From NCBI GenBank assembly GCA_004322365.1, contig SCTS01000006.1, forward strand, positions 160,756 through 224,755: 64,000 nt of DNA, read 5' to 3'. The stretch is from Patescibacteria group bacterium (GTDB taxonomy: Bacteria > Patescibacteriota > Minisyncoccia > Phycocordibacterales > Phycocordibacteraceae). Positions 9,621 to 64,000 of this stretch are shown here, piece after piece (the first letter of the stretch is position 1; every line of letters begins with the position of its first letter). The position numbers were made by a program, and so were the translations under genes. The notes below the pieces were generated by a model that worked only from the letters and a program-made list of their open reading frames with translations, did not search any database and had not been told where the DNA came from.

Positions 9621-10310
9621 TTATATATCGAGGACTCTTTGAACAACGCTTGCCTGCACGGTAAATGTAGTTGTGCCCCCCGGAACTACCGCTGAACCCT
9701 TAATACGCATAAGAACGCGGGGCTGTATGCCATCTCCTTTCGCTGAGCCAACAACATAAAAATCGAAGCTATCAATTGAGACTTCGGGTGCAGTAATCGC
9801 AATCCAACTACCGTTAGCACCTCCACGCAAAGAACGCTCAAGTTGTGTACCGTTTAACCGATAGACAACTTGGTCATTCGCGTCAGTCAAATTGCCTGTT
9901 GACGACTCGAACGCAAGAAGACGAGCTCCACCCAAAGCGCAATCTTGTGGATTTGCAATTGTTGAAGACGGTGGAGGAGATGGGGGTGTTGTGGCAGAAG
10001 TAACGCAATTATATAAGGTGCCTACACGAATGGATCGTGACATACCTTCGACTGCTGCACTCAAGTTGTTCATGACTGAGTGGATTGCCTGCGCACGGTG
10101 GTTTGTAGCCACAAGTGACAATAACCCGCCAACCCCAACCATCATAACAATGGCGAATATTGTTACCGCAACCATCATCTCAATCAGAGTGAATCCGCGC
10201 GCTGTTTCCTTTCCACCTGTGCGGAGCAAAGTACCTATACGAAAGACTGAGACTTGGGCAAACGCCCCGGAGTGGTCTTTCGTATAGGTACTTTGTGTAG
10301 TTTTTTTCAT
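9621..10310 (-). CDS. Minor pilin / pseudopilin (prepilin-type N-terminal domain)
   Basis: 229 aa with RGFTLIEMMVAVTIFAIV. Confidence 0.7.
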   Translation of the reverse strand: MKKTTQSTYTKDHSGAFAQVSVFRIGTLLRTGGKETARGFTLIEMMVAVTIFAIVMMVGVGGLLSLVATNHRAQAIHSVMNNLSAAVEGMSRSIRVGTLYNCVTSATTPPSPPPSSTIANPQDCALGGARLLAFESSTGNLTDANDQVVYRLNGTQLERSLRGGANGSWIAITAPEVSIDSFDFYVVGSAKGDGIQPRVLMRIKGSAVVPGGTTTFTVQASVVQRVLDI

Positions 10311-24747: not shown

Positions 24748-25034
24748 AAGAGGGATTCGGTCACAAGTAAATTTCCTGACGGAAATTTCTTGCTACCCCG
24801 ACTCGGTACTTTTGCCTTGAGCTATCGCTCAAACAAAAGTATACCTCCGTCATTCGAATCCCTCACGTAACACATGCCTATGTGTTACGTGAGGGATTCG
24901 GTCACGAATCACTAAGTATTTTACTCCTAGCGCTCGTAAAATACTAAGTGTTCTCGACCCCGGCTCAGAAAAGCTCTCCCAGAGCTTTTCTTCCGCCTTT
25001 CGAATCCCAGCACCTATTCCACATAAATAAAAAA

Positions 25035-30677: not shown

Positions 30678-30831
30678 AAACTAGAGAGTGTGCTCGCCAA
30701 AAAAGCACCTGCCGCACGTTTTTCCTGACTCTGAGACATCCCTCTTGCAACTACACATACAACTACACACAAACGCACCCGCTTCGTGTCTCGATACGCC
30801 TACATATTTCTCAGAACGTAGTTTCATATAG

Positions 30832-30904
30832 TCCACCCTCTTGGACTCGAACCAAGGACCCTCGAGGTATAAGCTCGATGCTCTAACCAACTGAGCTAAG
30901 GGTG
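30832..30904 (-). tRNA. tRNA-Ile (anticodon UAU)
   Basis: Manual fold of 73 nt: acceptor CCACCCT/AGGGTGG, D-arm GCTC-AGTTGGTTA-GAGC, anticodon arm TCGAG-CTTATAC-CTCGA, T-arm CTTGG-TTCGAGT-CCAAG, discriminator A. Confidence 0.7.
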
Positions 30905-30939
30905 GATATCCGCACTATATATCCTCAAGTGCGAATAAA

Positions 30940-31145: not shown

Positions 31146-33146
31146 CTATACCTGATGCTCGATGTCTTTTTTCTTTTTTGGTGTAATACCTCCCGCAATC
31201 AAGACTTTCTCAAACTCGTCACGCTCTACCGTCTCTACTTCAACAAGTTTTGCGGCAATCATGTCCAAGAGCTTGCGATGCTTCACAATTAAGTCCTTGG
31301 CCTTCTCGTGAGCGTCATCTATTATTTTCTTCACCTCTGAATCAATCTTTGCTGACACTTCTTCTGAATACTCCTTGTCTGAAACACCACGACCGAAAAG
31401 CGTGCGACCCCCTTCGCCCTCGAGGGCCATTGGCCCCAAAGTGTCGGACATACCGTACTTAGTAACCATGTCACGAGCAAGTGCCGTTGCTACCTGCAAG
31501 TCGTTTGATGGCCCTGTAGTCAAGTCACCAAATACTTCCATTTCAGCAACATACCCACCTAAAGAAACTGCGATGTCATCCAAGAATTCTTTCTTTGATT
31601 GCATCTTTGTATCTTCATCTGGCAACTTCAATGTGTACCCAGCAGCACGGCCACGAGAAATGATGGAAATTTTATGCACGGGGTCCGCGTACGGCAAGAT
31701 GGATGCAACGAGTGCATGTCCTCCTTCGTGATATGCAGTAATTTCTTTTTCTTTTTTATTAAGAAGGTGACTTCTTCTTTCGGGACCAAGCATTACTTTC
31801 TCGATGGAACGCACCAAGTCAAACTGTGCAACCTTCTTTCTGTTTTCTCTCGCAGCGAGAATGGCACCCTCGTTCATCAATGAATACAAATCAGCACCAG
31901 AAAATCCAGGAGTGCGCTCTGCGATAGTGCGAAGCACCACATCTTCTGCGAGAGGTTTTTTGCGTGCGTGCACCTTCAATATTGCCTCTCGATCGTCACG
32001 GTCTGGTAAATCAATGGTGACGCGCCTGTCAAACCTACCAGGGCGGAGAAGTGCTGGATCAAGAACATCGGGGCGGTTAGTTGCCGCCATAATGATAACT
32101 TTTTCATTCGGTTCAAAGCCATCCATCTCAACGAGGATTTGGTTCAGTGTTTGCTCTCGTTCATCATTTCCACCACCAACACCTGTGCCACGAATACGAC
32201 CGACTGCATCAATTTCATCAATGAAGATAATCGCAGGAGCTGCGTGTTTTGCCATATGAAAGAGGTCTCGCACACGAGAAGCACCAACGCCGACAAACAT
32301 CTCTACGAATTCAGAACCAGAGATTGAAAAGAACGGTACACCTGCTTCACCTGCAACAGCTCGGCCAAGCAATGTCTTACCTGTTCCAGGGGCACCCATA
32401 AGAAGAACGCCCTTTGGAATACGTGCACCGATATCCAAGAATTTTTTTGGATTCTTCAAAAAGTCTACGATTTCGGTCAGTTCCTCTTTTGCTTCTCGTG
32501 CGCCAGCAACATCACTGAATGTAACGCGTTGATTCAAGTCTTTCGGATCTATCATTCGTGCCTTTGACTGACCGAAGGTGAACGCTTGCATTCCTGCCCC
32601 ACGAACTTGCTTCGAGAGAAACCAAATGAATACGATGATGAGTATAAGAGGGAGAATGATGGGAGCTAGTGTGAAGAACCAGAATTGAAAACCACTCTGA
32701 TCTTTAACCTCAATCGAAACTTTTGATATTTCGTCTGCTTTCAAACCGTAGTTTGAAAGTGTTGTTGAAAGTGCGGTGTTGGACTCTTTCTTACTCGATC
32801 TCTTGCTGGTGTCAGTGTAGGTAGCGGTTAACTTATCGCCCTCGACGATAATGCTTTTTACGGAATCAGTCTTTATATCTGCGGCAAGCTGTGAAAGGGT
32901 TACATCTTTAACGTCCACCTTTTGTCCAAAGAAAAAAGAATAGAGAGATGCGAGAATCAGCACCACCAATACTATTGAGGTTATATTATTCCACCCACCT
33001 CCCTTTGCTGGCATACCGGGCATACCTTTTGGAACAAAATTTTTCAAAGGGTTTTTATCTTTGATTGGTTTTTTCTTGTCTGGAGTTTCTTTGAGATTGA
33101 TTTCAGGCATCTGGCTATTATATACGGCTACTCGCAAGAACACCAA
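31146..33146 (-). CDS. ftsH: ATP-dependent zinc metalloprotease FtsH
   Basis: 666 aa with two TM segments, an AAA module ([15 protein letters not shown]) and an HEGGH zinc site. Confidence 0.9.
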
Positions 33147-33187
33147 AGATAATAAATAAAACCCCTCTTATGGAGGGGTTTTATTTA

Positions 33188-33997
33188 TTATCTTTTGTCT
33201 CCAGTCTTCGGCTTAACTGGCGGGGTTACTGGTGGAGTAGGAGGGTACCCATATCCAGGTGGACGCTTAACGGTAAGTAGATTCCCTTTTGCACTTCCAA
33301 CATTTACCGCTCCGATCTGATTCCCACATTTTGAGTAACCGTATTTATTCTTATAGCCATATCGAATTGTCTTGCATTGATCGCCCACAGCAGAGCCGGA
33401 AGTAATAGATGCCTTGAGTTGAACGGCTTGCATACCCGCTCTTGTATAGGAAGGTTTTCCGACGATGGTAATTGTCCCTGTGGTTTGTGTGAGATAGATA
33501 GGGAGGTCTTTCTTAAAGACGAGCACATACGTGTCACCGTTAATGAACGAGACTGAAGTAGGTTCCAAAGATTGCATCATCCCGCAGGCACCGCCTTTAT
33601 AACCATACCCGTAGGTGACACCTTCATTGACGCAATATGCGTAGTGAAGAGCAAAGTCCGTCACGGAAAGTGATGGAGCCTGGCGACCAGAAACCGGTAT
33701 CGAAACTGTGAACGAATTGAGTGTTGCTTGCCATTTAACATTCATTGCTTTTACATCAAAAACAGCAAGAATTTGTGATGTGTCATTCACTAGGCTACCT
33801 GTTGGACTCTTAGCGGAACGAGCGATGATAACAGTTGGTCTTCCAGAAAAGGATGACAAAACATTTGCAACTAAAACATTGGAATCAGCAACAGCCATCC
33901 CAGACACTGCAAAGAAAGAGCCTCCAGTAATCACTCCCGCAACCAGAAGTGAGAGGAAAACTTTCATGGAGTTCCCTTTTTTATTCATTGCTGTCAT
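33188..33997 (-). CDS. Secreted hypothetical protein
   Basis: 269 aa with a signal peptide and Gly/Tyr-rich regions. Confidence 0.5.
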   Translation of the reverse strand: MTAMNKKGNSMKVFLSLLVAGVITGGSFFAVSGMAVADSNVLVANVLSSFSGRPTVIIARSAKSPTGSLVNDTSQILAVFDVKAMNVKWQATLNSFTVSIPVSGRQAPSLSVTDFALHYAYCVNEGVTYGYGYKGGACGMMQSLEPTSVSFINGDTYVLVFKKDLPIYLTQTTGTITIVGKPSYTRAGMQAVQLKASITSGSAVGDQCKTIRYGYKNKYGYSKCGNQIGAVNVGSAKGNLLTVKRPPGYGYPPTPPVTPPVKPKTGDKR

Positions 33998-36000: not shown

Positions 36001-36392
36001 GGGGGTGACTGGTTTCGACGGAGAATTTCCTCTGTTGCGCGCAAGACGGTGAATGCTGGAGATCACCTTAAACCTCGAGCACTGAAACGTGCAAACGCTT
36101 CTATAAAGAGCCCTTACAATTTCGCTTTTGCGACTGCGTAAGTTCCCTCTTCCGTCCTCGCTTCGGCCGGGACGGCGCTAGGCTTCTGATGTCTAATAGG
36201 AAGACTCTAGTGCCATAACATCAGACTCTATTCTTCTTTACTGCTCGTAGAAAAGAATGAAATTGAAGAGCTCGGATAGGTGTCATTTTGTTCGTTCTCT
36301 ACCCACCTGTCTTAAACCTTGAAACGAACTATGTCTTGTAGAAACGCTTCGGAGACCCTCTCTGTACGGGAGTTCGACTCTCCCCACCTCCA
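36001..36392 (+). ncRNA. ssrA: tmRNA (ssrA)
   Basis: 5' GGGGGTGACTGGTTTCGACGG and 3' GGGAGTTCGACTCTCCCCACCTCCA form a tRNA-like domain. Internal ORF GCA AAC GCT ... GCG TAA predicts the tag ANASIKSPYNFAFATA. Lies immediately downstream of smpB. Confidence 0.8.
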
Positions 36393-36440
36393 CAAATAAA
36401 AATTACCTGCGTGCGCAGGTAATTTTTATTTGTGGAGGTG
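36383..36440 (+). terminator. Exceptionally long perfect hairpin (about 27 bp) overlapping the tmRNA 3' end
   Basis: Sequence ccacctccacaaataaaaattacctgcg tg cgcaggtaatttttatttgtggaggtgg. Confidence 0.6.
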
Positions 36441-36464
36441 GAACAAGCAAATAGTTTTGCTTGT

Positions 36465-56055: not shown

Positions 56056-59000
56056 TTAGAACTCATCGAAGCGAGGAGTAACACCTATAGTCACTGACTT
56101 TGAGCTCGGCACTCCTCCAGTCAAACAATTCATGGTGTAGGTGCTTTGTTGATTTATGATCACAGACTGTGCGCCCGAAAAAGCTGTTGAGGAAAGACCG
56201 GGACCGGAGATTGAACATGTATCAGGAGTGCCTACCACTCCCCACGACACCGTTGCAGGGTCGCCTTGGCGAACAGTAACACTTGGACTTATGGTGAGAG
56301 TAATGTCGGCAGGATTTACAGTAACCGTGGCACTTGAAGATGCGCTTCGTGTACCATTAGTACAAGTGATACCGTAGGTTGTAGTAACTGGAGGGGAAAC
56401 AGTAACCGAACCAACGGTTGCGCCCCCTGTTGGGAAGTTAGTTCCTGTACAAGAAGTGGTGTAAGAAGATGTCCAGTCAATGCGTGGAGAGGTTACTCCC
56501 TTAATAATAACAGGTGGTGAGACAGTAATAATCACTGTTGGAGTGTTCTGTATAGTTCCCGTTGCGCATGTCGCAGTAACTGACCCTGTACCTGAGGTCA
56601 CAATAACTGAAGCCGATTTCGTACCAGCGCTACCATATGTCTTCGAGACAGTTGCACCTGTGCCAAGAAGTCCGTCAGTACCACTCCACACATAGGTGTA
56701 TGAACCTACTCCTCCTGAAGGTGTGACAGACCATGTTAATGAATCCCCCACATATCCAGTACTTGGTGATGGGGAACACGATGCTGAGAGTGCTCCGGGG
56801 TTCACTGATAATGATGTCCACGCACTACAATTATCAAGCTCATTGGACTCACTCACTTCATTAAGTGGTGTGTCGGCACAAAAACGCATCTGGTACGAAC
56901 CCGGTGAAGGAAATGTGTAGCTACCTGTTTGTGTACCGCTACCCCCAGCTACAATCGATATTCGACTTAAAGCAATCTTAATTGACGTATTGGCTTCGGC
57001 AAAATTAATAAAGAAACTAAAAATACGACTCCAAATAGAATCTGATTGGGTGAGGTAATTATTAAGACAAGCACTATCTGAACTAAGGCACACATACATC
57101 CTTGAACCGAAAACTGGAGTCGCTGCACCACCAATATTGGTAACACCCGCAGTGAATGTGGTATTTACTCCTGCGGTTACACTCGTAGGAGAAAGAGACC
57201 CTGTAGTTAAATCTGCCAAAGAAACGCCAACTACTACAGAGTTGGAGCAACTTGCGGTTGTTGATAGTGGCGCTGACGCAGTTGCCATACCTGCAAAATA
57301 ATTATGTCTCGTTGTGTTACCAGTAGTTGAGGTTTTTGAGGCAAGAGAGGCATTCGAATATGCTTCGTAGCGATAGTAGGTGTTAACTGGTTGCCCAGTT
57401 GAATTCACAGTCTCTCGTACATCAACACTACAGCAACCACCTGCAGGAGTTATATCTGCACACGATCCTGCCATAGAGCTAGTATTGAGAGTAAATCCGA
57501 CACCATCCTCGGTAGTACCATAACTACCTACCTTCGTACCTCCAGAGCAGTGCTTTTCCCCTTGAAGCGTAACAGAAGTTGCGCCGGAAGGGCTAGTGAT
57601 AGTGATTGAGGCTGTTTTTGTACCGACAGTTGTATATGTTTTTGAAATAGACGCAACAGCACCCGAGAGACTATCAGTACCACTCCATAAATACGTGTAT
57701 GAACCAGTTCCACCCGATGCAGAGGCAGTCCAAGCCACGGGACTACCGGTATAGACACTCGTTGGAGATACCGAACATGACCCAGAAAGAGTGCCAGGGG
57801 GAGGTGAATTTACCTGAACATTTGCGGTAGCGAAAGCGGTCTGGGGAGTCGTAGCAGGAGAGGCACCAACACACTGGTACACAGCTGTTTCAATTTGACA
57901 CGAATCATTGGCCACATTTATTTTACATACATTACCGCTTCCTACCCCACTGCAAGATTTCCCTGCTGGACTTGAGGGGCACCATGCTAATCCAGAATAA
58001 GCAATTTCAAGACTTGACACTCTGGTTACACCTACATTACAAGCAAAATCACTGATGTCATTATATGAAAGCTGCCACGTACCTGATGACGCGGCACTCG
58101 CCCCCGTACAGGTAATAGAATAGTTAGTCGTTGCACTTAACGCTCCAGTCGAAATAGAGCCTGATGTGTTACCTCCAGTCTCAAATCCACCACCAACACA
58201 AGAAATCGCATTGGTTGAGGACCATGTGAGAGTAGCGGAAGATCCAGAATTCAAACTTGTTGGAGTTGCAGAGAGTGAAACCGTGGGTGATGCAATAGCA
58301 CTAACAGTAACTGTTTGCGACGCTGAGGCGGACCCACCAGCACCAGTACATGAAACAAGATAACTGGTTGTTTGCGATGGAGTAACTGTTACAGAGCCTG
58401 CGGTTGCAGAGGATGTTGAGAAGTTAGTTCCTGTGCAGGAAGTTGCATTAGTTGAACTCCAGGTGATAACTGACGACGCACCCACTACAAGAGAAGTTGG
58501 GTTTGCAGAAAGTGATGCAGTTGGTGCAACCACAGGCGCACTAACGGTAACCGTTGCGAAAGAAGACACTGTCTGGGAACCATCGGTACAGGTAATTGAA
58601 TAAGTTATTGAAGAGGGAGGTGAAACGATAAGTGAACCTGCAGTAGCACCTCCCGTTGAAAAGTTGGTGCCGGTGCACGAAGTCACATAATCCGAAGTCC
58701 ATGTTAAGAGAGCCGAACCTCCACTAGATATAGAAGAAGGAGTGGCAATAATGCCTACATAGGGTGTTGTTGGTTCCACAACACAACCTTCATCTATGTC
58801 GCCGATAGTCGCAACCTGGTAGGTACTTTGCACTGTATAACTATCCCCGCCATATACTGCGCGAAATGCTGCTTCACCTGCACTACCTGGAGGGAAAGGA
58901 TTAGTCACTACTGTGTAGTCATACTCCCATGTGGTACCTGTACAGTCACCGCCTCCTGTTGGACCAGCATATGCTAATTGAGGAATCGCACTGAATACAG

Positions 59001-59079
59001 CGAGCATAAAAATGGCACCAATGAAAAAAGTTTTAAAAGCGGGAATAGTAAGTTGGCGGAGAGCTTGCATTGCATTCAT
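56056..59079 (-). CDS. Very large secreted protein with tandem roughly 70-aa Ig-like repeats (Thr/Ser/Gly-rich)
   Basis: 1007-aa uninterrupted ORF with a signal peptide. Repeats such as ..SSGGSALLTWTSDYVTSCTGTNFSTGGATAGSLIVSPPSSITYSITCTDGSQTVSS..TVTVS and ..ITWSSTNATSCTGTNFSTSSATAGSVTVTPSQTTSYLVSCTG.. recur at least five times. Confidence 0.7.
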   Translation of the reverse strand: MNAMQALRQLTIPAFKTFFIGAIFMLAVFSAIPQLAYAGPTGGGDCTGTTWEYDYTVVTNPFPPGSAGEAAFRAVYGGDSYTVQSTYQVATIGDIDEGCVVEPTTPYVGIIATPSSISSGGSALLTWTSDYVTSCTGTNFSTGGATAGSLIVSPPSSITYSITCTDGSQTVSSFATVTVSAPVVAPTASLSANPTSLVVGASSVITWSSTNATSCTGTNFSTSSATAGSVTVTPSQTTSYLVSCTGAGGSASASQTVTVSAIASPTVSLSATPTSLNSGSSATLTWSSTNAISCVGGGFETGGNTSGSISTGALSATTNYSITCTGASAASSGTWQLSYNDISDFACNVGVTRVSSLEIAYSGLAWCPSSPAGKSCSGVGSGNVCKINVANDSCQIETAVYQCVGASPATTPQTAFATANVQVNSPPPGTLSGSCSVSPTSVYTGSPVAWTASASGGTGSYTYLWSGTDSLSGAVASISKTYTTVGTKTASITITSPSGATSVTLQGEKHCSGGTKVGSYGTTEDGVGFTLNTSSMAGSCADITPAGGCCSVDVRETVNSTGQPVNTYYRYEAYSNASLASKTSTTGNTTRHNYFAGMATASAPLSTTASCSNSVVVGVSLADLTTGSLSPTSVTAGVNTTFTAGVTNIGGAATPVFGSRMYVCLSSDSACLNNYLTQSDSIWSRIFSFFINFAEANTSIKIALSRISIVAGGSGTQTGSYTFPSPGSYQMRFCADTPLNEVSESNELDNCSAWTSLSVNPGALSASCSPSPSTGYVGDSLTWSVTPSGGVGSYTYVWSGTDGLLGTGATVSKTYGSAGTKSASVIVTSGTGSVTATCATGTIQNTPTVIITVSPPVIIKGVTSPRIDWTSSYTTSCTGTNFPTGGATVGSVTVSPPVTTTYGITCTNGTRSASSSATVTVNPADITLTISPSVTVRQGDPATVSWGVVGTPDTCSISGPGLSSTAFSGAQSVIINQQSTYTMNCLTGGVPSSKSVTIGVTPRFDEF

Positions 59080-59134
59080 TGTACAGGGAATTTATACCTA
59101 CCGTTAAAGTAAAGTCGCGAGAGGTGGAATAACA

Positions 59135-59164
59135 AAAAACTCTCCACATGGTGGAGAGTTTTTT
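59135..59164 (-). terminator. Rho-independent terminator immediately 3' of rplB
   Basis: Sequence aaaactctccac atg gtggagagtttt flanked by A/T runs. Confidence 0.6.
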
Positions 59165-59167
59165 GTT

Positions 59168-60453: not shown

Positions 60454-61143
60454 TTATTTCTCTAGTCGTTCTGTAAGCGTTTTAACAGACACCTTCGGAT
60501 CTACAACGAGAATATAACGGTAGGTGAGCAAGTCAACTGGATTTGCGTTTCTCGCCTCATCAACCATCACGTTCTTCATGTTGCGGAAGCTCTTTACTAC
60601 CGCGACATCATGCTTCGAAAGAAGGATGAGTGCTGCGTTGTTTCTGCGTGTAGCGAGCTCAGCAAATCCTTCTATTTTAGCAAGGCCACCGAGGGTTGCC
60701 TTTGCATCCTTTGTTTTTGGAGCCTTGAAAGAAAGCGAGTCAACAAAAATCATTTTTCCTTTACGGAGTTTTTCTGAAAGAACTGTTGCGACTGCCTTCG
60801 CACGCATCTTCTTATTGATTTTCTGTGAGAAATCGCGTTCCTTTACTGGTCCGTGAGTCGTACCTCCTCCTCTCCAGATTGGAGATCGAATAGAACCGTG
60901 ACGAGCTCGGCCAGTACCCTTTTGCTTCCATGGCTTCTTACCGCCACCACGTACCTCACCACGACCCTTCGTGTGAGCAACAGGAGTGCGAGCGTTCGCT
61001 TGCATAGCAAGAACAACCTGATGCACCAAAGCATCATTTCTCTTTGCATCAAAAATGCCCTCTGGGAGTTCAATCTCCCCTACTTCTTTTGCGCTTGTAT
61101 TGTAAATTGAAGCTTTCATATATTTATTTTCCTCGAATTTCAA
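60454..61143 (-). CDS. rplD: 50S ribosomal protein L4
   Basis: 229 aa. Confidence 0.9.
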   Translation of the reverse strand: MKFEENKYMKASIYNTSAKEVGEIELPEGIFDAKRNDALVHQVVLAMQANARTPVAHTKGRGEVRGGGKKPWKQKGTGRARHGSIRSPIWRGGGTTHGPVKERDFSQKINKKMRAKAVATVLSEKLRKGKMIFVDSLSFKAPKTKDAKATLGGLAKIEGFAELATRRNNAALILLSKHDVAVVKSFRNMKNVMVDEARNANPVDLLTYRYILVVDPKVSVKTLTERLEK

Positions 61144-61732
61144 TCACGGTACCTTTGCGTCCTGGAACTGCTCCACGAACAAAAATTTCATTCTTTACGC
61201 CGTCAACACGAATGACCTCAAGGTTTGGAACAGTCACACGGTCAGAACCCATTCGTCCTGCCATGCGCATACCTTTCACCACACGACCTCCTGCTCGGCC
61301 TGGACCTCCTCCTGAAGAACCGCGCTCTCTTTCAGAATGTTTCTGACCGTGTGTGCGGGGACCTCCTTTGAAGCCGTAGCGCTTCACAACGCCCTGGAAA
61401 CCTTTTCCTTTTGAAATTCCTGAAACGACAACGCTTTCACCTTCTGAGAAAGCAGTGACATCAAAAGTTGCACCTACTTCAAGTGCCTCAGCACCATCAA
61501 AGCGAAATTCACGAAGTCCACGAACATTTCCCTTAGGTTGCTGTGGTTTTGCAATGCGTGATTGCTTCTGCTCACCGTAACCCACCTGTACTGCCTTGTA
61601 GCCGTCAGTATCAATATTCTTAACTTGGGTCACTGTAACCTTTGGTGCATGTATAACGGTAACAGGCACAGCGTGACCCGCTGCATTGAAGACCTGTGTC
61701 ATTCCTTGTTTTGTTCCTATGATGAATTTCAT
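61124..61732 (-). CDS. rplC: 50S ribosomal protein L3
   Basis: 202 aa. Confidence 0.9.
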   Translation of the reverse strand: MKFIIGTKQGMTQVFNAAGHAVPVTVIHAPKVTVTQVKNIDTDGYKAVQVGYGEQKQSRIAKPQQPKGNVRGLREFRFDGAEALEVGATFDVTAFSEGESVVVSGISKGKGFQGVVKRYGFKGGPRTHGQKHSERERGSSGGGPGRAGGRVVKGMRMAGRMGSDRVTVPNLEVIRVDGVKNEIFVRGAVPGRKGTVIEIRGK

Positions 61733-62416
61733 TAGTTTTTTGTTGGCGAGTCCTTGAGTCTAGAAAAATCTAACCCTGTTAAATCCCCGTTCCGGGGACG
61801 CTTCGTACTCGAAGCGTATTTAACAGGGTTCTGAGAATCTAATCGCTACGCTCAAGATTCTCTAGAAAAAAACGCACACCGGTATTCGCAGTGTGCGATA
61901 TACCATTGGTTTACCCTGAGCTTGTCGAAGGGTCCGATCCTTTCGATGTTTCGGAGGCAAACGTAGCGTTTCAGCTACTATACACAAAGCATCTAAAAGA
62001 TGCAAGAAACCAAGTACCGAGACGAAACCTAGGTACTTTTACACGTATCTGATACAGATATTTCAGCCGTGAAGTATGCTTTGAACACGAGACCGCGAAA
62101 GAGGCTCGGTTGGAAAACTCCTCTAGAAATCTAGAGTGGTGCACTTACCTGTTGAACTTAAGATAGAAATACTTGACAGAAGGTTTCTAATATGCTATTA
62201 TTCACACATCGTTTAAACACTTAAATTTTTTCTATGAAAGAGGGACTCAAATTAATTTCACGACAAGGTGGTTTTAAAACGACCGGTCCAGGTTTAGAAC
62301 ACTGCCCCGATCCTGATGCTATCGTATCCGGTTATGTATACAATAAACTTAACAAATTATGGTATAAAAAGGCCTAAGAACAGGAGAAAATAGAACGTGT
62401 ACGCAACACAAACTAA

Positions 62417-62442
62417 AAACCGCCCTTTTGGGCGGTTTTTTC
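62417..62442. terminator. Strong bidirectional hairpin terminator inside the rpsJ-rplC spacer
   Basis: Sequence aaaaaccgcccttttgggcggtttttt. Confidence 0.65.
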
Positions 62443-62594
62443 GATCTTTTTTACAGCCCTCCACAATTTCTCTGAGATGAGAAATTGGGAGGACTTAAGA
62501 AAATCTAAGCAAGCTTTGCTTTAAGGTCTCTAAAGGCCGAAGCGAAACGCTTCGGCACTCAACAAATTCTAAATCGCAACGCGATTAAGAATTT

Positions 62595-62990
62595 CTAGAG
62601 CATTCTGACATCAACCGAGACGCCGGATGGCAATGACAAGTTCGTCAAAGCATCAATGATTTTTGGAGTTGGATTCACAATGTCCAAGATACGCTTATGA
62701 GTACGAATCTCAAACTGCTCACGAGCATCTTTGTAGACGAACGATGAGGCATTGACCGTGAATTTCTTGATATCAGTTGGAAGTGGGATGGGCCCTACAA
62801 CCTCCGCATCAAAGCGAAGCGCTGTGTCAATAATTTGCTTTACCGAAGCATCCAAGACTTTGTGGTCATATGCGCGAACACGGAGACGCAATTTGCCTAC
62901 ACCCGCAACTGGAGCCGCAGATTTCGCTGTCTTTGCTCCTGCTTTTGGTGCCTTGCGGACAGGCGTCTTTTTTTCTTTAGTGTCGGACAT
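62595..62990 (-). CDS. rpsJ: 30S ribosomal protein S10 (Lys/Ala-rich N-terminal extension)
   Basis: 131 aa with core KLRLRVRAYDHKVLDASVKQIIDTA. Confidence 0.9.
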   Translation of the reverse strand: MSDTKEKKTPVRKAPKAGAKTAKSAAPVAGVGKLRLRVRAYDHKVLDASVKQIIDTALRFDAEVVGPIPLPTDIKKFTVNASSFVYKDAREQFEIRTHKRILDIVNPTPKIIDALTNLSLPSGVSVDVRML

Positions 62991-63019
62991 AGATTTTCAA
63001 AGTTCGTGAATACTAGGCT

Positions 63020-64000
<981 letters not shown>

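Follow-up and report, generated by a model that had tools for sequence, protein, structure and literature searches.

The 862-nt spacer that separates the ribosomal protein genes rpsJ (S10) and rplC (L3) in a Patescibacteria group bacterium is, with a probability of about 0.6, a mosaic built around a conserved cis-regulatory leader that serves an independent rplC-rplD-rplW-rplB operon. The stretch analyzed (the window) comprises 64,000 nt of assembly GCA_004322365.1, contig SCTS01000006.1, positions 160,756 to 224,755 of the forward strand, and all coordinates are given within it. To judge from its sequence, the region holds a new family in a known class, the ribosomal protein leaders; a literature search found no paper describing a ribosomal leader in Patescibacteria (the candidate phyla radiation, CPR), and the leader is apparently previously undescribed. 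A separate promoter and leader for rplC and the genes after it had been proposed from the spacer sequence alone (the original prediction), and this part of it was supported: a conserved promoter, a structured leader, and a terminator were found directly before rplC, with covariation in the leader and members across Patescibacteria. The conserved promoter and leader at 62005-61866, the most significant element, had not been singled out, and the evidence cited instead (a junction with a 13-bp stem, repeats of TCTAGAAA, and a hairpin at 62536-62556) is absent in five close relatives and is not part of the leader.

The leader RNA upstream of rplC

The leader and its signals are all on the minus strand, in this order:

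62005-61977, minus strand: leader promoter, with -35 TTGCAT (62005-62000), a 17-nt spacer, and -10 TATAGT (61982-61977), read from the sequence
61976-61866, minus strand: rplC leader RNA of about 105 nt (transcript from about 61971), from the covariance model, covariation, and terminator scan
61972-61963, minus strand: 5' strand of helix P1, GAAACGCUAC
61962-61909, minus strand: P2, expanded and branched in the lineage of the window
61909-61903, minus strand: invariant CCAAUGG
61904-61881, minus strand: antiterminator hairpin P3'
61897-61873, minus strand: stem of terminator 2, followed by a U-run at 61872-61866

Transcription of the leader is predicted to start at about 61971-61969. The arrangement of TTGCAT, TTGCAA, or TTGCTT, 17 nt, and TATAGT or TATACT precedes the motif at every leader-bearing locus with available upstream sequence, the counterpart of the -35 in L164 being TTGCCC, and a TATAGT -10 is also present 5' of tRNA-Ile in the window. 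According to the terminator scan, terminator 2 has nine pairs (six of them G-C) and seven U, and lies between the promoter and the rplC start codon; equivalent terminators are present in L161-L164, L168, L033, L102, L005, L024, L111, and L115. The invariant ACCAATGG, with (A)CGCTACGT and a variable hairpin 5' of it, recurs upstream of rplC across many Patescibacteria loci.

Close relatives were found through an L3 protein-cluster search and contig look-ups, and L168/L169 through a homologue of ORF47, a 47-codon open reading frame (ORF) in the spacer. Scans with L3 of genome and metagenome collections gave no close relative (best 65% in species-representative genomes and 60% in metagenomes). 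By its L3 homologues, the organism belongs to the Patescibacteria and is Paceibacteria-like. The relatives compare with the window as follows:

L161: L3 99% identical in amino acids and 92% in nucleotides; contig starts inside the spacer
L162: L3 85% identical in amino acids
L163 and L164: L3 76% identical in amino acids
L168/L169: operon genes 84-90% identical in nucleotides

On the operon strand, L161, L162, L163, L164, and L168 all have a terminator behind rpsJ (terminator 1), followed by the promoter and the leader with terminator 2. In L161, L162, and L168 the position of terminator 1 matches that in the window, and L163 and L164 have analogous hairpins. The relatives have leaders of approximately 85-105 nt, and the U-run of terminator 2 stops 12-18 nt before the rplC ATG in all five (L161-L164, L168). 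The leader and its counterpart in L168 agree at 93.8% of positions over 178 nt, while third codon positions are only 70% identical in rplC and 59% in rpsJ; conservation so far above that of third codon positions indicates that the leader is under selection. The same core architecture in independent assemblies (NCBI, JGI, and Logan) also bears on whether the spacer could be an assembly artefact arising from a repeat that was collapsed or chimeric. The spacer is free of tandem repeats and has no second copy in the window, nothing was found in favor of an artefact, and its probability is negligible.

Two covariance models were used, R1 built from six sequences and R2 after R1 had recovered more members at the same position. 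The leader of the window scores 80.8 bits with R1 and 64 bits with R2 (E 1e-13), and there is no second match in the window. R2 matches 18 distinct Patescibacteria loci (E 3e-18 to 3e-5), five of which are outside the seed alignment; every match immediately precedes rplC and is co-oriented with it, and nothing else has E < 0.01 in 1.13 Mb. Among the 18 sequences 88% of cells are paired, compared with 27-57% when the partners are slid, a percentage inflated by alignments that were fitted to the structure of the model. Changes on both sides are present in 13 of the 17 pairs, and the covariation score is 0.531 versus 0.157 ± 0.022 for shuffled alignments, with none of 500 shuffles as high. The arms of P2 are wholly different among members (CGGAAG/CUUCCG, CAGAGA/UCUCUG, GUCGGCC/GGCCGAC, GUCCCUCCCC/GGGGAGGGAC, and GUUUGCC/GGGUAAAC).

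The leader occurs only where rplC is uncoupled from rpsJ. In all 20 leader-bearing loci the gap between S10 and L3 is at least 179 nt or there is no S10 upstream, and the leader is present in none of the 96 loci whose gap does not exceed 130 nt. Rfam returned no known family: cmscan with Rfam 15 over 61000-63200 at E <= 1 gave only sub-threshold terminator look-alikes (for example, Phe_leader at 35.4 versus 55 bits), the whole window gave only a tmRNA, two tRNAs, and terminator look-alikes, and the leaders of four relatives (L161, L163, L033, and L017) matched no family.

A second, terminator-less variant in L012, L015, L017, L023, L114, and L149 keeps the three-way junction, but its P3 is long and a U-run is absent; the fold z-scores are -4 to -7.6. 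Because the junction is the same, the core appears to be joined to differing downstream platforms, an arrangement that by analogy is typical of riboswitches and ribosomal leaders. The P3 of this variant has a conserved apical CUUGUGCU complementary to GGCACAA after CCAAUGG, and by eye a pseudoknot is possible; in L012 the region of CUUGUGCU has GCU changed to GUC, and the pairing is retained through wobble pairs. Upstream of rplC in L026 and L021 there may be degenerate versions of the motif that the model did not detect, GUUCC-UUCG-GGAAC followed by CAAUAG 5 nt before the ATG in L026, and GUCCCC-GCG-GGGGAC followed by CUCUGG in L021.

A predicted switch between terminator and antiterminator

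In the proposed mechanism, transcription of tuf-rpsJ would halt at terminator 1, and the dedicated promoter (62005-61977, minus strand) would initiate the leader RNA of about 105 nt. In the ON state the RNA would fold into a three-way junction that prevents the terminator, so that transcription would proceed into rplC. P1 would pair 5' GAAACGC-UAC with the 3' arm of the terminator and the U-run, P2 would be the variable hairpin, and P3' would pair GGUAU, which follows the invariant CCAAU, together with UCGCA, with the loop and 5' arm of the terminator. In the OFF state the terminator at 61897-61873 and its seven U would form, and the transcript would end 134 nt before rplC (12-18 nt in relatives). 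A factor that recognizes the conserved junction (CUACGU, the base of P2, and CCAAUGG) could tip the leader toward one fold or the other; this regulator would most likely be an excess ribosomal protein of the operon (uL3, uL4, uL23, or uL2).

In silico, the minimum-energy fold of the full-length leader is the antiterminator junction using both arms of the terminator in seven of eight clade members, and the 3' tail alone folds as the terminator. In L005, L013, and L115 alternative hairpins are more stable than their own terminators, and more distant members have competing hairpins that use CAAUGG itself, such as CAAUGGC/GCCAUUG in L005. These folds suggest that the leader may act as a conditional, riboswitch-like attenuator of rplC-rplD-rplW-rplB. 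That termination is conditional, the direction of the switch, and the effector are what we infer, unlike the conservation, covariation, position, signals, and two in silico folds. A pseudoknot between CAAUGGUAU and the terminator loop was dropped in favor of an alternative hairpin; its third connecting loop would be 0-1 nt, and minimum-energy folds give the hairpin.

The 12-18 nt that lie between the U-run and the ATG in the five close relatives leave no space for a further promoter; transcription of rplC must therefore pass through the terminator, and the leader is part of the rplC mRNA. A different explanation is that the element, of about 105 nt, is a small RNA gene in its own right that acts in trans, lies beside rplC, and has no cis-regulatory role. 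It is a complete unit from promoter to terminator, as a small RNA gene would be, and in the window, in L102, and in the second variant the rplC start codon is 50-200 nt away from it. Against this, the element is always on the strand of rplC and directly upstream of it, whatever gene lies farther upstream, and its terminator competes with a conserved alternative fold; together with the need to read rplC through the terminator in the relatives, these features make an independent small RNA quite improbable.

The proposed cis-acting attenuator can be compared with several known systems, of which the S10 leader of E. coli and an L4 candidate leader of Archaeoglobi are the nearest analogues. In E. 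coli the leader of the S10 operon, upstream of rpsJ, mediates L4-dependent transcription attenuation and translational repression. The two have in common an intrinsic-terminator hairpin shortly before the first regulated gene, an operon with L3, L4, L23, and L2, and the presumed logic of ribosomal protein feedback through premature termination. They differ in position, the present leader being located after rpsJ and terminator 1 and before rplC, and in structure, as the E. coli mechanism is not known to use a three-way-junction antiterminator competing with the terminator, which the present leader is predicted to have. Given this position, 3' of rpsJ and 5' of rplC, and an Rfam scan that matched neither a ribosomal protein leader nor any other family, the description of the leader as "L4-type" in the original prediction was not confirmed. 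The S10-Clostridia leader (RF03136) is also lineage-specific and belongs to the same gene cluster; it was matched in the Clostridia loci examined, is upstream of rpsJ, and has no match in the window.

The proposed mechanism resembles that of ON-type three-way-junction riboswitches such as the pbuE/ydhL adenine riboswitch, in which P1 and the terminator share one segment as their 3' strand and 3' arm, and the junction excludes the terminator. The comparison extends to mechanism only, because the present leader does not have the purine consensus or an Rfam match and is found with ribosomal protein genes, a context that makes a protein ligand more likely. A ligand other than a ribosomal protein, whether a small molecule or a factor such as an alarmone, an ion, an RNA chaperone, or an assembly factor, would be compatible with the three-way-junction core and its invariant junction nucleotides, with the competition between P1 and the terminator, and with the finding of no rRNA mimicry; it is nevertheless unlikely, as the element is exclusively before L3-L4-L23-L2 genes. 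Metabolite riboswitches normally control genes for transport or biosynthesis, and to our knowledge all characterized leaders of ribosomal protein operons bind ribosomal proteins. L4 has also been proposed as the ligand of an archaeal candidate leader before the same four genes (PMC7247131). This candidate, the L4 r-leader of Archaeoglobi upstream of rplC-rplD-rplW-rplB (Eckert and Weinberg 2020, PMC7247131), was found by comparative genomics only, with the ligand assigned from prior knowledge. It shares with the present leader the set of downstream genes and the manner of discovery. It differs in being archaeal, and since the present motif has no match to any Rfam model at E <= 1, covariance models give no indication that the two are homologous.

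Several observations weigh against a ribosomal protein-responsive leader, in addition to the inflated pair counts described above. P1 and P3' vary little in the clade of the window, and for this reason these helices rest mainly on energy predictions. The -35 of the leader promoter has only three of six consensus positions, which is why a simple, generic promoter scan did not report it. In the window, the 133 nt between terminator 2 and rplC (block e) could contain an undetected promoter, although neither the scan nor inspection by eye gave a convincing promoter for rplC within this block. A factor that stabilizes the junction would switch the operon ON with ligand, the opposite of classical autogenous repression. 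Finally, likeness to the rRNA binding site of the protein is a common, although not obligatory, feature of ribosomal protein leaders, and the one such lead that was tested, mimicry of helix 96 of 23S rRNA, did not hold up. The tip of helix 96 in E. coli (located as in PMC2330231) is GCCAAUGGCAC and matches the leader motif; the match is genuine, but the bacterial large subunit (LSU) rRNA consensus at this tip is GCcAgcggCa, and mimicry was rejected as evidence because the sequence is not conserved among bacteria.

Insertions and a convergent unit in the spacer

The genes and boundaries of the locus are the following:

63020 to beyond 64000, minus strand: tuf, directly 5' of rpsJ and co-oriented, from the ORF list
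62595-62990, minus strand: rpsJ, ribosomal protein S10 of 131 amino acids, from the ORF list
61733-62594, operon on the minus strand: rpsJ-rplC spacer of 862 nt
62410-62446, both strands: terminator 1, bidirectional and intrinsic, with stem 62415-62425/62430-62440, from the terminator scan and as inverted repeat I9
61124-61732, minus strand: rplC (L3), first gene of the rplC-rplD-rplW-rplB unit, which extends down to 59168, from the ORF list and homologues
59131-59167: perfect bidirectional hairpin of 17 bp (inverted repeat I8), closing the rplC-rplD-rplW-rplB unit after rplB

The product of rpsJ is 60-76% identical to those of relatives (tblastn), and the orthologues are annotated as Pfam Ribosomal_S10. 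The original prediction was right that rpsJ and rplC, both on the minus strand, are split by 862 nt, and that a bidirectional terminator is present, although this is located at 62415-62440 and not at 62417-62442. Its premise that S10 and L3 genes are normally contiguous applies to bacteria generally and not to this group, in which the gap is 4 nt to 3.5 kb among 80 related Patescibacteria genomes; the long gaps of these relatives contain unrelated ORFs, including a toxin-antitoxin-like pair. DNA comparison of the spacer with 80 GTDB loci gave only terminator-like matches, none resembling the spacer. Terminator 1, with an 11-bp stem, a 4-nt loop, and flanking A- and T-runs, is predicted to close both the tuf-rpsJ unit (minus strand) and the unit of ORF47 (plus strand).

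Around terminator 1 and the leader the spacer differs greatly among close relatives. From the rpsJ stop codon to terminator 1 there are 15-25 nt in L162, L163, and L164, and about 128 nt of unrelated sequence in L168. Between terminator 1 and the leader promoter there is nothing in L161 and L163, a 116-amino acid ORF in L162, a 63-amino acid ORF on the opposite strand in L164, and, in L168/L169 as in the window, a 47-codon ORF on the opposite strand with a near-consensus promoter. No family could be assigned to the ORFs of L164 and L162, neither of which resembles ORF47. Three parts are present only in the window:

62446-62594, minus strand: block a, an array of four hairpins right after the rpsJ stop codon, starting with TCTAGA (62594-62599)
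62558-62600, 62536-62556, 62507-62521, and 62458-62492: hairpins of block a (inverted repeats I1, I18, and I23)
62043-62120: extra segment of about 77 nt (about 12 nt in L168), adjoining a double TCTAGA at 62122-62135
61733-61865, minus strand: block e, 133 nt separating the leader terminator from the start codon of rplC
61772-61784/61818-61830: perfect 13-bp stem in block e that encloses two hairpins (inverted repeat I6)

Block a with terminator 1 has a fold of -82.2 kcal/mol (z = -9.8), and block e, which also has an outer imperfect inverted repeat, has a fold of -48.1 kcal/mol (z = -6.4); no unusual degree of structure is seen in the central 409 nt (z = -0.6). The 13-bp stem with two enclosed hairpins had been noticed in the original prediction and is present, within a block that is unusually structured as a whole. 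Long perfect hairpins are frequent in the intergenic DNA of this genome, and the 13-bp stem ranks 23rd in the window. The hairpin GCCGAAGCG/CGCTTCGGC exists as well, at 62536-62556 (I23) rather than 62544-62562, and so does the recurring TCTAGAAA, with its copies at 61759, 61861, 62122, and 62592-62599 on the minus strand and not at 61762, 61858, 62134, and 62590. TCTAGA is strongly clustered: five of its 12 copies in the window are in the spacer, where about 0.16 would be expected.

Blocks a and e are absent from all five close relatives (L161, L162, L163, L164, and L168) and are lineage-specific insertions. Both open with TCTAGA and a similar hairpin, and their 32-nt starts are alike (2 of 300 shuffles as high). 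A 10-bp direct repeat, TCTAGAAAAA (D10), at 61759-61768 and 61861-61870 flanks 92 nt of block e; the outer inverted repeat runs past the second copy of TCTAGAAAAA, and the boundaries are ambiguous. In the distant relative L102 (453-656; L3 57% identical) rplC is separated from the leader terminator by an insertion of about 200 nt with a 16-bp stem starting ACCCTGT. Block e and this insertion at the same site have a 25-nt stretch with 20 of 25 matches (1 of 300 shuffles as high). The two blocks resemble miniature inverted-repeat transposable elements (MITE), repetitive extragenic palindromic (REP) elements, and palindrome-associated transposable elements (PATE) in being short (100-150 nt), with nested hairpins and presence or absence among close relatives, and block e also in its flanking 10-bp direct repeat; they differ from these in having no further copies in the 64-kb window and no clear terminal inverted repeats. 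On balance, blocks a and e are probably small palindromic insertions, similar to mobile elements or decayed. A link to IS200/IS605 was rejected, as neither block is related to the ends of the transposase genes that L163 and L166 carry. A family of "ACCCTGT...ACAGGGT" hairpins was also unconvincing, with five heterogeneous instances in 1.13 Mb compared with an estimated 1-2 by chance.

A decayed mobile insertion, as the original prediction suggested among other possibilities, is thus the best fit for blocks a and e and similar segments and not for the conserved core. The same evidence bears on whether the entire spacer could be functionless, made up of junk DNA or decayed mobile elements in which the hairpins arose by chance. 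The absence of blocks a and e and of 62043-62120 from close relatives, their TCTAGA boundaries, the similar starts of the insertions, and the unrelated inserts at the same junction in relatives would all agree with this, yet it fits the insertions only: terminator 1 and the leader are present in all five close relatives, and the core covaries and is conserved far above neutral sites, so that a spacer without function is very improbable. Instead, the comparison points to a spacer that is a mosaic and to an rpsJ-rplC junction that is a hotspot of insertion.

The remaining part of the spacer is a convergent unit on the plus strand. The original statement that the spacer contains no ORF was not quite right, since there is a 47-codon ORF with a 64% identical homologue behind a promoter with 11 of 12 consensus positions:

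62173-62201, plus strand: promoter with a TG extension, TTGACA-17-TATTAT, agreeing with the consensus at 11 of 12 positions, from the promoter scan
62234-62377, plus strand: ORF47, 47 codons, MKEGLKLISRQGGFKTTGPGLEHCPDPDAIVSGYVYNKLNKLWYKKA

The homologue of ORF47, P0123 (47 amino acids, 64% identity, E 5.5e-12), has the corresponding position and strand in the rpsJ-rplC spacer of GCA_040384205.1, and the 110-nt stretch with the promoter (62124-62233) is 86% identical to L168. The unit of promoter, ORF47, and terminator 1 is common to one relative lineage only. Substitutions in ORF47 by codon position are 9/10/6, with pN/pS of 1.4, compared with 4/0/60 for rplC in the same pair of genomes; the even spread and the ratio show that the pattern is not protein-like and gives no sign of purifying selection at the protein level. 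ORF47 has no match in Pfam or PHROG, and a word-index search found nothing. An exhaustive search gave one true homologue and five matches to repeat proteins that are regarded as spurious; P0124 and P0126 were inspected as candidate homologues and rejected, P0126 being leucine-rich-repeat-like with a recurring "GLKHCPNL." As RNA, the ORF47 transcript is not unusually structured (z = +0.6), and with two sequences only there are no pairs informative about conserved structure. ORF47 may encode a small peptide or may instead form the body of a small RNA that lacks structure.

Third codon positions of rplC are 82% identical between the window and L161 and 70% identical between the window and L168. 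Within 61866-62440, the window and L168 have in common the expanded P2 and the ORF47 block; in L161 the ORF47 block is absent and P2 is simple, as it is in more distant relatives. With rplC nearer to L161 and P2 and the ORF47 block as in L168, recombination or replacement within the spacer is suggested.

The ribosomal protein clusters of this group are repeatedly disrupted. In the window, the S10-type cluster ends after rplB with the 17-bp hairpin, followed by a repeat-rich surface-type protein of 1007 amino acids (56056-59079) where rpsS would be expected, and in L163 (5704-6378) and L166 (5529-6200) there is a Y1_Tnp (IS200-like) gene between rplB and rpsS. The window also contains many very long perfect inverted repeats of up to 28 bp (36384-36441, 33142-33198, 10227-10295, 24855-24900, and others), the first of which adjoins the tmRNA gene (36001-36395). 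A tRNA-Ile with a TAT (UAU) anticodon was found with ARAGORN at 30831-30905; in most bacteria AUA is decoded by a lysidine-modified CAU tRNA, and the UAU anticodon is an unusual solution.

Possible counterparts and significance

In metagenome-assembled genomes of Clostridia, just before rplC, there is a conserved CCAAGCUG-[4 to 144 nt]-CAGCCAAUAG or CAAUGG, followed by (UU)AGGAGG (L034, L046, L050, L055-L057, L059, L120, L126, L127, L129, L130, and L133). The arms of this element covary (GCUGGU/AUCAGC, GCUGGC/GUCAGC, GCUGGA/UUCAGC, and GCUAGU/AUUAGC), and Rfam gave no match to it in the rpsJ-rplC spacer, the only match being the S10-Clostridia leader upstream of rpsJ. In the Clostridia element as in the Patescibacteria leader, C-CAAU(A/G)G comes after a helix. 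These Clostridia spacers may hold a distant counterpart, in which a hairpin is followed by CCAAUAG or CCAAUGG beside the Shine-Dalgarno sequence.

Combining these elements gives a more detailed proposal, which is offered tentatively and with somewhat less than even confidence: a hitherto undescribed riboregulator, distributed widely among Patescibacteria (Paceibacteria-type), in which a three-way junction with invariant CUACGU and CCAAUGG strands would sense a protein of the L3-L4-L23-L2 operon and switch a terminator, with a terminator-less variant elsewhere and a possible counterpart in Clostridia. If the Clostridia counterpart is real, the recognition site would be old and common to several phyla.

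Almost nothing is established about gene regulation in the uncultured, reduced-genome Patescibacteria. The covariance model can be used to annotate the element in thousands of metagenome-assembled genomes, the compact three-way junction of terminator and antiterminator is a model amenable to in vitro work, and the insertions that are present or absent in the spacer are markers of recent genome change at a hotspot. If the proposed regulation is correct, the leader would be a further case of the independent origin of a leader on the break-up of an operon, here with rplC uncoupled from rpsJ, and it would provide a concrete route to studying how the synthesis of ribosomal proteins and rRNA is balanced in Patescibacteria.

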